Part shown: positions 16,622 through 18,630 of the stretch, piece by piece
How positions within the stretch are numbered: the stretch's first letter is position 1
Layout of the letters: each line of letters opens with the position of its first letter
NCBI GenBank assembly: GCA_965227515.1
Contig: CBDDFZ010000001.1
Location: forward strand, 288,001-352,000
Source: Alphaproteobacteria bacterium
Lineage (GTDB): Bacteria > Pseudomonadota > Alphaproteobacteria > CALKHQ01
Length of the DNA: 64,000 bases
Direction: 5' to 3'
Made by a program: the position numbers and the translations under genes
Notes under the pieces: generated by a model
The model's database searches: none
The model's input: the letters and a program-made list of their open reading frames with translations, nothing else
Told to the model about the DNA's origin: nothing

Positions 16622-17143
16622 CTAGCGCTTGCGGAAGGCGTCCAACGCCACGACGTTGTCGTCGCCCGACGCGGCGTCGCCGTCTTCGGCGATCTCCAGG
16701 TCCGACGTGGGCTGGTCCCCGCCCTGCTGATCCTCGGTCTTGGTCTCGGCCAATTCGTCGGACATGCCGAGCTTGGCCGTGCCATCGGCGGACTCGCCCT
16801 TGAACTGCAGGCCGAAATTGACCGATGGGTCGGCAAACCCGGTCAGCGCGGCGAACGGCACCACCAGGCGCTCGTGGTGCTTGTTGAAGCTGAGGGTGAC
16901 CGCGAAATGGTCTTCCAACACCTCCAGGCCCCAGAACTTGTGCTGGAGCACGATGGTCATCTCCTCCGGGTACTTGGCGACCAGGAAGTCCGCGATGTCC
17001 ACGCCGGGCGCGGAGGTGCGGAATGTGATGTAGAGGTGGTGATTGCCCGGCAGCCCGTCTTCCGCCACCGTTTCCAGCGTGCGGCGCACCACCCCGCGCA
17101 GGGCGTCTTCGACAAACGTGTCATAGCGGATCAGCGGCGTCAT
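16622..17143 (-). CDS. sspB: ClpXP adaptor SspB (alphaproteobacterial type)
   Basis: ALRGVVR, LPGNHHLYITF, YPEEMTIVLQH, FADPSVNFGLQF, C-terminal VVALDAFRKR. Adjacent to ssrA. Confidence 0.93.
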   Translation of the reverse strand: MTPLIRYDTFVEDALRGVVRRTLETVAEDGLPGNHHLYITFRTSAPGVDIADFLVAKYPEEMTIVLQHKFWGLEVLEDHFAVTLSFNKHHERLVVPFAALTGFADPSVNFGLQFKGESADGTAKLGMSDELAETKTEDQQGGDQPTSDLEIAEDGDAASGDDNVVALDAFRKR

Positions 17144-17198
17144 CGACCGGGCGGCTCCCGTGAGTTTCTGCGGGCGCGCCGGCGGCCGCGCCAAATCA

Positions 17199-17476
17199 GT
17201 GGGGGGCTTCTGTTGCCCGGCGCCCCCCGAAACCGCGCTTACCTAAATTTAGGCAGCGAGTGCGATTTCGTTATCGTTCGCACCTAGGTTTTGGCCCGAT
17301 AACGGCGGTACCATGCCGGGCGAAAGCACTGTCTTTACACGCACGTCGATCCTGTTTCGCCCCCATGATGCGCCCTGGAAACCCGGGCGGATAATGGTGG
17401 AGGCGCCGGGTACTGCCCCCGGGTCCGCAACGCTTATTTCACAGACCGTTTATCGCCATAGCCGAGCAAGCCCGGC
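17199..17476 (-). ncRNA. ssrA: Two-piece (circularly permuted) tmRNA
   Basis: Minus strand: T-arm/acceptor 3' end ...CCCGGCGCCTCCACCA (ends 17395), a 30-nt intervening segment, then GGGGGCGAAACAGGATCGAC (starts 17364). Tag ORF ANDNEIALAA* at 17281-17249. TATAAT -10 at 17488-17483. Confidence 0.95.
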
Positions 17477-17610
17477 AGTAAGATTATAAAGGACGTTTTG
17501 CGGTGATTTAAAGGCCCGAGGGCGTTCGGCGGGCCGAAATGCGATTCGGCACGCCGGGACTCGCATTGCTATAGTCGCCACCCGTTCCGCCGCAAGATCA
17601 CGAGTCGCCC

Positions 17611-18630
17611 GTGCCCCTCACATCGCTCGAACAAGAGGAAATCGACCGCCAGCGCGCCCAGTCCGCCGCCACCCGGCGTATGTGCGTGCCGGCACTGGAG
17701 GAGGAGCTGTTCTCCGCCATCCCGGTGCTGGACCACGGGTTCGTGCGGGTGGTCGACTACATGGGCAGCGACGAGGCGGTGGTGCAGGCGGCGCGCGTGT
17801 CCTATGGCAGCGGCACCAAGCAGGTCTCCAACGACCGCGGGCTGATCCGCTATTTGATGCGCCACCGGCACACCACGCCGTTCGAAATGTGCGAGATCAA
17901 GTTCCATGTGAAGCTGCCGATCTTCGTCGCCCGCCAGTGGATCCGGCACCGCACCGCCAACGTGAACGAATATTCCGCCCGCTATTCCCGCATGGACCGG
18001 GAGTTCTACGTGCCGGATGCGGACTATCTGAGCGGCCTGATCGCGGGCAAGAAGGCCGACGAGCGCCAGTTGAAGCTGTTCGGCGGCGAGGAAGCCGCGG
18101 CCCCCACCGCCACCGGGCTGCAATCGACCACCAACAAGCAGGGCCGCGAGACCGGCCTGGATGTCGAGGAGGTGGGCGACGCCATCGGCAAGATCGACCG
18201 CATCTCGAAGCAGGCGTACGGCACGTACACCACGCTATTGAACGAGGACGAGCGCGGCCGCAAGAAGGACGAGAATCGCACCGGCCTGGCGCGCGAGCTG
18301 GCCCGCATGGTACTGCCGGTCAACGTCTATACCCAGTGGTACTGGAAGATCGACCTGCACAATCTGCTCCATTTCATCAGCCTGCGCGCCGACGCCCACG
18401 CGCAATACGAGATCAGGGCCTATGCCGATGTGCTGGCGGACGTGACCAAGAAGTGGATGCCGCTGACGTTCGAGGCGTTCGAGGACTATGTGCAGGGCGC
18501 CGCCAACCTGTCGCGCGGCGCGCTCGACGTGGTGCGCCGCCTGCTCGCCCGCGAAGAGGTGACCCAGGAGAACAGCGGGCTCACCAAGCGGGAATGGCTG
18601 GAACTGAAGGCCCAGGGGCTGGTCGGTTAG
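17611..18630 (+). CDS. thyX: FAD-dependent thymidylate synthase with an internal insertion
   Basis: [51 protein letters not shown]. Confidence 0.97.

Follow-up and report, generated by a model that had tools for sequence, protein, structure and literature searches.

The motif through which proteins bind the bacterial beta sliding clamp (DnaN) is defined as Q-phi-x-[L/M]-[F/L] or Q-phi-x-[L/M]-x-[F/L] (PMC11139829). In the sections of that 2024 review drawn on here, aspartate is described as slightly preferred at position 3, the flanks as tending to be acidic and some motifs as lying in internal loops. The glutamine is considered important, its replacement by Ala, Glu or Gly strongly cutting affinity, yet some binding occurs without it, the Leu-Phe pair is able to bind alone and the delta subunit alone is naturally devoid of the residue (PMC11139829). 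The wild-type motif of Escherichia coli DNA polymerase III alpha is given as QADMF, with mutational data summarised, while in the MutL motif QPLLI (PDB 6E8E) subsite I takes up the leucine together with the final hydrophobic residue, and the proline is thought to keep the glutamine out of subsite II (PMC11139829). The clamp partners covered in these sections act in DNA replication and repair.

Physical coupling of DNA-precursor enzymes to the replisome has been debated for decades, with phage T4, an E. coli hyperstructure and a eukaryotic nuclear complex as the systems concerned. In the eukaryotic case, SHMT1 is reported to interact with PCNA, the idea being that the clamp brings dTMP synthesis to the fork, which would possibly limit uracil misincorporation (PMC2688753); in E. 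coli, impaired ThyA is reported to alter fork organisation (PMC2773459). For bacteria, the portions of these two papers used here yielded no defined tether between DNA-precursor enzymes and the replisome. Here we analyse a flavin-dependent thymidylate synthase, ThyX, encoded in a 64,000-nucleotide stretch of an alphaproteobacterial genome (hereafter the window), in which a loop insertion carries a candidate clamp-binding pentapeptide.

The thyX gene and its genomic context

The gene thyX (17611..18630, + strand) opens with a GTG start codon and encodes 339 aa, as read from the open reading frame and its translation. The product matches Pfam PF02511 (Thy1) with 193.3 bits against a curated cut-off of 24.8 (E 4.9e-57) and covers positions 1-190 of the 191 in the profile; its matches to solved ThyX structures reach E-values as low as 4.9e-72. 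Its translation contains R112-H113-R114...S122, all four residues being invariant in 89/89 sequences, and this segment is the RHR-x7-S signature of ThyX. ThyA (PF00303) was absent from the source genome, which is 99.67% complete, in a profile search that matched 10 of 14 control genomes; ThyX is therefore the only thymidylate synthase found there. As for the wider genome, dnaA and dnaN lie on the smaller of its two contigs (1.45 Mb; C2:387291-390309), and thyX and dnaE on the 4.07 Mb contig.

Upstream of thyX lies a two-piece (permuted) alphaproteobacterial tmRNA gene, ssrA (17198-17515, - strand; RF01849, 257.5 bits), placed between thyX and sspB (16622-17194, - strand; Pfam SspB), which encodes a ClpXP adaptor. 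Adjacency of thyX and ssrA was found in 11 of the 14 relatives' loci searched, with long-loop and short-loop ThyX alike, and the long form is therefore an ordinary orthologue at an ordinary locus. A second, smaller insertion relative to the Thermus enzyme 6j61 was seen at residues 212-222, in a segment that varies among homologues and corresponds to a gap in the protein P0119.

Anatomy, predicted structure and distribution of the loop insertion

Between P135 and Q171 the enzyme carries a lineage-specific loop of 35 residues (136-170; 18016..18120, + strand), as against 7 in most alphaproteobacterial ThyX, so that the net insertion amounts to about 28 aa. The alignment to 6j61_A, the nearest solved ThyX, breaks at this site into query residues 36-137 and 171-317, leaving query residues 138-170 (33 residues) opposite 3 in the chain. 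An initial annotation, made from the sequence alone, had placed an insertion at 18031-18117 and QLKLF at 18067-18081; translation of the open reading frame returns exactly these positions, the former corresponding to residues 141-169 (SGLIAG...PTATG). The same annotation had taken six to eight residues as the usual distance from FYxP to QSxxNxQG, which agrees with the 7-residue loop (type APEQLAA, counted from the conserved Pro to the Gln) found in 25 of 120 close database homologues and in 125 of 224 aligned rows. Its claim of an insertion was correct as far as the enzyme itself goes, but the feature is not private to the window's ThyX: 95 of the 120 homologues hold 29-56 residues at the site, in a search that ranks by shared words and is thereby biased towards insert-bearing proteins.

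The loop falls into three parts, followed by an invariant segment of the enzyme. The N-terminal half (residues 137-153; 18019..18069, + strand) is a predicted helix with AF2 block pLDDT values of 66-75, and the same helix is predicted in the orthologue P0026; its base is conserved at D136 and L140 (0.04 and 0.08 Fitch steps per sequence), the remaining helix being variable. The candidate beta-clamp-binding motif QLKLF follows (Q153-F157; 18067..18081, + strand), delimited by column counts, Fitch steps, a motif census, the published definition and predicted contacts with DnaN. A C-terminal linker (residues 158-170; 18082..18120, + strand), variable and predicted as coil with pLDDT of about 50, is rich in Ala, Pro, Glu and Gly; across inserts the linker composition is A 0.25, P 0.14, E 0.12 and G 0.08, with a net negative charge in 52 of 86. 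It rejoins the enzyme at the conserved Ala169, directly ahead of the loop Q171-S-x-x-N175-x-Q177-G178-R179 (18121..18147, + strand), which is present in both long and short forms and in which Q171, N175, Q177, G178 and R179 are invariant in 89/89 sequences. In general the inserts comprise, in order, a conserved base, a helix that varies and is frequently basic (median of 21 residues on the N side), the motif and a linker (median 13 residues).

In the AF2 monomer model (mean pLDDT 83.1), helix 137-153 gives way to coil from residue 154. Block pLDDT values are 51, 50 and 52 over residues 151-180, falling below 50 at 156-158 and, around the start of the invariant loop, at 168-172 and 174-176. These features bear on the possibility that the insertion is an intramolecular or inter-subunit lid, its Leu-Phe pair resting on ThyX itself and tuning the Q-S-x-x-N-x-Q-G-R loop, with an effect on substrate access or on an oxidase side reaction and no outside partner. 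Such a lid would fit an insertion that ends directly before an invariant loop of low model confidence, as well as the conservation of D136 and L140 at the helix base; the P0026 model, in which the same helix and coil recur with higher values (76 and 67) for the blocks that cover the motif QPDLF (157-161), could likewise mean some packing onto the enzyme. Against it, the motif of the window's ThyX is modelled below pLDDT 50 and lacks secondary structure, and lengths of 29-56 aa with Ala/Pro/Glu/Gly-rich linkers suit a tether better than a fitted lid; this length range also argues, at the level of sequence, for a surface site. In addition, the long and short ThyX forms are told apart by only two core positions, at one of which (V234) the Thermotoga and Thermus enzymes have Val as well; nothing in this comparison therefore points to a docking surface on ThyX that co-evolved. 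The candidate idea that the core surface had co-evolved with the insert was rejected on this count of two positions, and we consider the lid improbable.

The spread of the insertion was assessed in a less biased sample of 401 alphaproteobacterial species genomes, 14 of which gave a single full-length match at E <= 1e-90. The insertion was confirmed in 12 of these 14 (the source genome G000, G001, G002, G031 and eight more), hence in at least 12 of the 401 species, about 97% of the sampled species being without it; of the remaining two, one has a short loop, and for the other the sequence pattern used gave no reading. These 12 species span seven GTDB families. The window's own order contains four genomes only. 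A broader alignment of 224 rows, comprising the query, 119 database proteins and 104 ThyX read from genomic loci, contains the insertion in 99 rows. In a FastTree tree of these rows built after removal of the insertion columns, all 99 insert-bearing rows fall into one clade of 107 rows (local support 99), with eight short-loop rows nested inside, and the insertion trait requires four changes. This pattern fits one gain followed by a few losses, the FastTree topology being weak evidence for the losses themselves; the eight nested rows nonetheless suggest that the insertion can be lost in some lineages.

Among representatives clustered at 50% identity, long and short forms collapse together, and a loop longer than 12 residues is present in only 6 of 150; elsewhere in these ThyX representatives, tails included, a search for clamp-like motifs gave none. 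Two of the representatives depart from the short loop in their own ways, P0138 with an unrelated 73-aa insert at the same loop and P0191 with a 17-aa loop containing KALF. From sequence, the site seems generally permissive for insertions.

Conservation of the motif and its modelled fit to DnaN

The family consensus at the motif is G-Q-x-D-L-F-G, and these are the sole conserved columns within the insert apart from its two ends. Across 76 insert-bearing sequences, the columns read G in 42/75, Q in 57/75, D in 49/76, L in 69/76 (with a further 6 M), F in 60/76 (with a further 14 L) and G in 43/74. Their entropies range over 0.5-2.2 bits (0.50 for L, 0.88 for F and 1.47 for Q), whereas flanking columns lie at about 3 bits. 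On the core tree, with 99 insert-bearing rows, L156 changes at 0.05, F157 at 0.07 and the Gln at 0.13 Fitch steps per sequence; flanking columns change at 0.3-0.5 and the enzyme-core median is 0.071. The motif Leu and Phe evolve as slowly as the catalytic core, and neighbouring columns evolve 4-8 times faster. The pattern Qxx[LM][FL] occurs in 66 of 89 distinct inserts, where 2.96 would be expected from shuffling each insert. An alignment of orthologues had been proposed as a check on whether the motif holds while its flanks vary, and by all three measures it does.

The same figures weigh on the view that the insertion is a tolerated, neutral loop expansion in which the motif survives as a functionless inherited remnant. 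That view could draw on the tolerance of the site for other insertions, such as the unrelated one in P0138, on the short-loop forms nested within the clade and on the fact that most ThyX work without an insertion. It would have to accommodate a Leu-Phe pair that is as slow as the catalytic core beside neighbours 4-8 times faster on the same tree, together with the excess of observed over shuffled matches, and we regard it as very improbable.

Departures from the consensus are of several kinds. Among the 66 inserts that bear the Gln, QPDLF is the commonest variant (19 inserts), and position 2 is often Pro or Ala across the clade. A further 20 of the 89 distinct inserts are without the Gln and keep x-[DESNTGA]-[LM]-[FL], for example MDDLF and WPDLF, and three fit neither pattern, one of them being QPDLI. 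In divergent insert-bearing species from other families, QPDLL, MDDLF, QIDLL, QERLF, QEEMF and CPDLF are kept, with QTMLL and HLDVF as weaker forms. The 20 inserts without Gln, and the Pro at position 2 of the commonest variant, count against a strict reading of the clamp motif.

It had been allowed from the outset that a five-residue match might arise by chance, and the source genome bears this out. Patterns of the form Q[x][DS]LF or QLxLF occur 73 times in its 26,466 six-frame open reading frames of >=100 aa and in 28 of the 7,186 with gene-like GC3. These 28 include ThyX and DnaE; of the other 26, 20 were scanned and belong to unrelated families or to none (GMC oxidoreductase, radical SAM, caspase+YbjN, hemerythrin, glycine cleavage P, AcrB, MFS and others, with five lacking a Pfam family). 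The pentapeptide alone is no more than chance would give and is unspecific; its conservation sets the ThyX motif apart. The Q/LF clamp pattern was not found in DinB, DnaE2 or ImuB of the source genome, and a search for Hda by PF00308 returned DnaA as the sole match.

Three of the other pentapeptide-bearing frames, all outside the window, deserve separate mention. An RNR-like 652-aa frame (C1:3817353-3819308, - strand) with QLGLF was tried as a second dNTP enzyme with the motif and rejected as chance, the Gln being replaced by Arg in 3/3 relatives; the context of QLGLF is Trp-rich and looks folded. The match of this frame to the ribonucleotide reductase barrel domain is partial, and it has counterparts of about 40% identity in the same family only, other relatives matching through a class II enzyme of about 1,230 aa. 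A radical-SAM frame (PF04055; C1:1692191-1693702, + strand) ends in RQLSLF directly before the stop codon, a clamp-binding-like C-terminal pentapeptide, and by its sequence may be a DNA-repair-type protein that uses the clamp. Finally, a Peptidase_C14 (caspase-like) and YbjN protein (C1:2832167-2833528, + strand) carries QSSLFG, the pentapeptide of DnaE, in an interdomain linker, which may be chance.

QLKLF (residues 153-157) fits the published form Q-phi-x-[L/M]-[F/L]. In the source genome, the DnaE segment QSSLFGGG aligns with GQLDLFG of 5fku_A, the strengthened form of the E. coli motif, and with GQFDLFG of 7pu7_A, Mycobacterium tuberculosis DnaE1; the corresponding ThyX segment reads QLKLFGG.

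Fit to the clamp itself was examined by modelling ThyX insert residues 136-170 (76-row alignment) with the DnaN of the source genome (375 aa, contig 2; 28-row alignment), a check that the initial annotation had also suggested. The complex scored 0.68 in 3/3 runs, against 0.03, 0.00 and 0.00 for controls, a result that may reflect memory of solved clamp-peptide complexes, of which there are many. Runs agreed in at least 56% of contacts, with a partner pLDDT of at least 47; among 157 solved complexes 116 attain the score mark, as do 2 of 215 mismatched pairs, a calibration only roughly valid for user-supplied alignments. Predicted contacts join ThyX residues 150 and 152-157 to DnaN residues 177, 179-182, 248, 253, 286, 329, 353, 355, 369 and 371-375. 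The published pocket comprises T172, G174, H175, R176, L177, P242, V247, N320, V344, V360 and M362-R365 (PMC11139829, in the section used here), and 14 of the 17 DnaN contact residues correspond to pocket residues of subsites I and II when equivalences are drawn by residue-pattern matching, with no displayed E. coli alignment (T-D-G-H-R-L 177-182, P-x3-R-V 248-253, N-x-x-Y 329-332 and V-x-M-P-M-R 369-374). In the model, Gln153 and Leu154 pair with subsite II and Leu156 pairs with subsite I, as the canonical register would have it. The model thus speaks for likeness and compatibility, and not for binding as such.

A conserved peptide could also dock a different partner, such as a dNTP-synthesis enzyme, a protease adaptor or another regulator, its likeness to a clamp motif being coincidental. 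Consistent with this, the strictly kept part is only [DS]-L-F, the Gln being missing from the 20 inserts described above, ThyX is not a DNA enzyme, and thyX adjoins ssrA and the adaptor gene sspB. The adjacency to ssrA, however, is found equally with short-loop ThyX (L006, L009, L014 and L045) and therefore does not track the insertion; moreover, Pol III alpha has the same motif, with the same glycines beside it, as its internal clamp motif, and the model seats the ThyX motif in the DnaN pocket in canonical register. To our knowledge, no other bacterial partner is known for G-Q-x-D-L-F-G. A partner other than the clamp accordingly seems unlikely to us.

ThyX as a candidate clamp client among described systems

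The two computational checks that the initial annotation had suggested, motif conservation among orthologues and a model with DnaN, both favour the clamp-binding reading, which remains a prediction. On balance we lean towards QLKLF of ThyX being a functional clamp-binding motif. Besides the departures from the consensus, points that weigh against it are the absence of the insertion from about 97% of sampled alphaproteobacterial species, its apparent loss in some lineages, the low specificity of the pentapeptide by itself, the higher pLDDT over the motif in P0026 and a carrier that acts outside DNA replication and repair. A fuller reading, in which ThyX enzymes of the insert-bearing clade are genuine clients of the beta sliding clamp and their recruitment to it serves a physiological role, is held more tentatively, with confidence somewhat short of even. 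Under the clamp-client reading, a clade of alphaproteobacterial ThyX would have gained, once, a surface loop made of a short helix, a conserved pentapeptide (QLKLF here) and an Ala/Pro/Glu/Gly-rich linker. The pentapeptide would most likely be a beta-clamp-binding short linear motif, docking, according to the model, into the hydrophobic cleft between DnaN domains II and III, where subsite II would accommodate the Gln and its neighbour at position 2, and subsite I the Leu-Phe pair. Tetrameric ThyX, as the cell's only source of dTMP, would in this way be brought to clamps loaded on DNA, either at replication forks or behind them.

The benefit could lie in a local supply of dTMP and a favourable dTTP/dUTP ratio near the fork. 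The product requires two further kinase steps before use, and simple channelling is therefore an incomplete rationale. Alternatively, the clamp could control ThyX activity by way of the invariant loop just after the insertion; because the motif lies 14 residues ahead of that loop, clamp binding might switch on dTMP synthesis where DNA is being made.

In the literature searched, subscription journals and supplements lying outside the search, no paper among the titles listed connects ThyX, or a thymidylate synthase of any kind, with the bacterial clamp, in keeping with the initial annotation, whose author knew of none for ThyX. The words 'thymidylate' and 'ribonucleotide reductase' have no occurrence in the text of the clamp-motif review (PMC11139829). 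If the prediction is true, ThyX would be the first enzyme of bacterial nucleotide biosynthesis to be tied to the replication machinery by a defined peptide, and the old 'replitase' or 'replication hyperstructure' idea would gain a molecular handle. It would also add a client of a new kind to an established docking system, widening the clientele of the clamp from DNA-acting proteins to a metabolic enzyme. Both ThyX and the clamp pocket have been discussed as antibacterial targets.

Among established clamp partners, the closest likeness is to DNA polymerase III alpha, whose internal clamp motif coincides with the ThyX consensus G-Q-x-D-L-F-G, with Gly on both sides and in an internal loop away from the termini. 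The difference lies in the carrier, a metabolic enzyme that does not touch DNA, and in the loop, which is clade-restricted and not universal. MutL QPLLI is likewise internal and has Pro at position 2, as in ThyX QPDLF; however, in the section of PMC11139829 used here, its motif is part of a structured region, its Gln makes no use of subsite II and MutL itself is a DNA repair protein. As a nucleotide-biosynthesis enzyme, ThyX is unlike the replication and repair partners in those sections of the review, a distinction that reflects a shared habit of known members and no mechanistic requirement. Canonical short-loop ThyX (Thermotoga maritima TM0449 in 1kq4/1o26; 6j61) shares the Thy1 fold and the RHR...S signature and is without an insertion at the site, with 3 residues in 6j61 as against 33 in the window's enzyme.

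Among systems that bring precursor synthesis to the fork, the eukaryotic nuclear de novo thymidylate complex (SHMT1/2alpha, TYMS and DHFR) offers a near parallel in the idea that dTMP is made at the fork via the sliding clamp (PMC2688753). As far as the portion of that paper used here describes it, the complex differs in having a ThyA-type TYMS and not ThyX, PCNA as the clamp and a link that runs through SHMT1 and not through thymidylate synthase itself. The phage T4 dNTP synthetase complex and the bacterial 'replication hyperstructure' resemble the present proposal in the physical association of dNTP enzymes with replication that has been proposed for them (PMC2773459). In T4, the link is reported to run through the gene 32 single-strand-binding protein, according to the title of a reference in PMC2773459, whereas for the E. 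coli hyperstructure the part of that paper drawn on defines no direct tether and gives no evidence for an RNR-affected hyperstructure. Compared with the T4 and E. coli proposals, in ThyX both the peptide and its candidate receptor, DnaN, are defined; natural controls exist in same-locus orthologues with the 7-residue loop and in lineages that appear to have lost the insert, and with these three elements in hand the question of coupling is directly testable.
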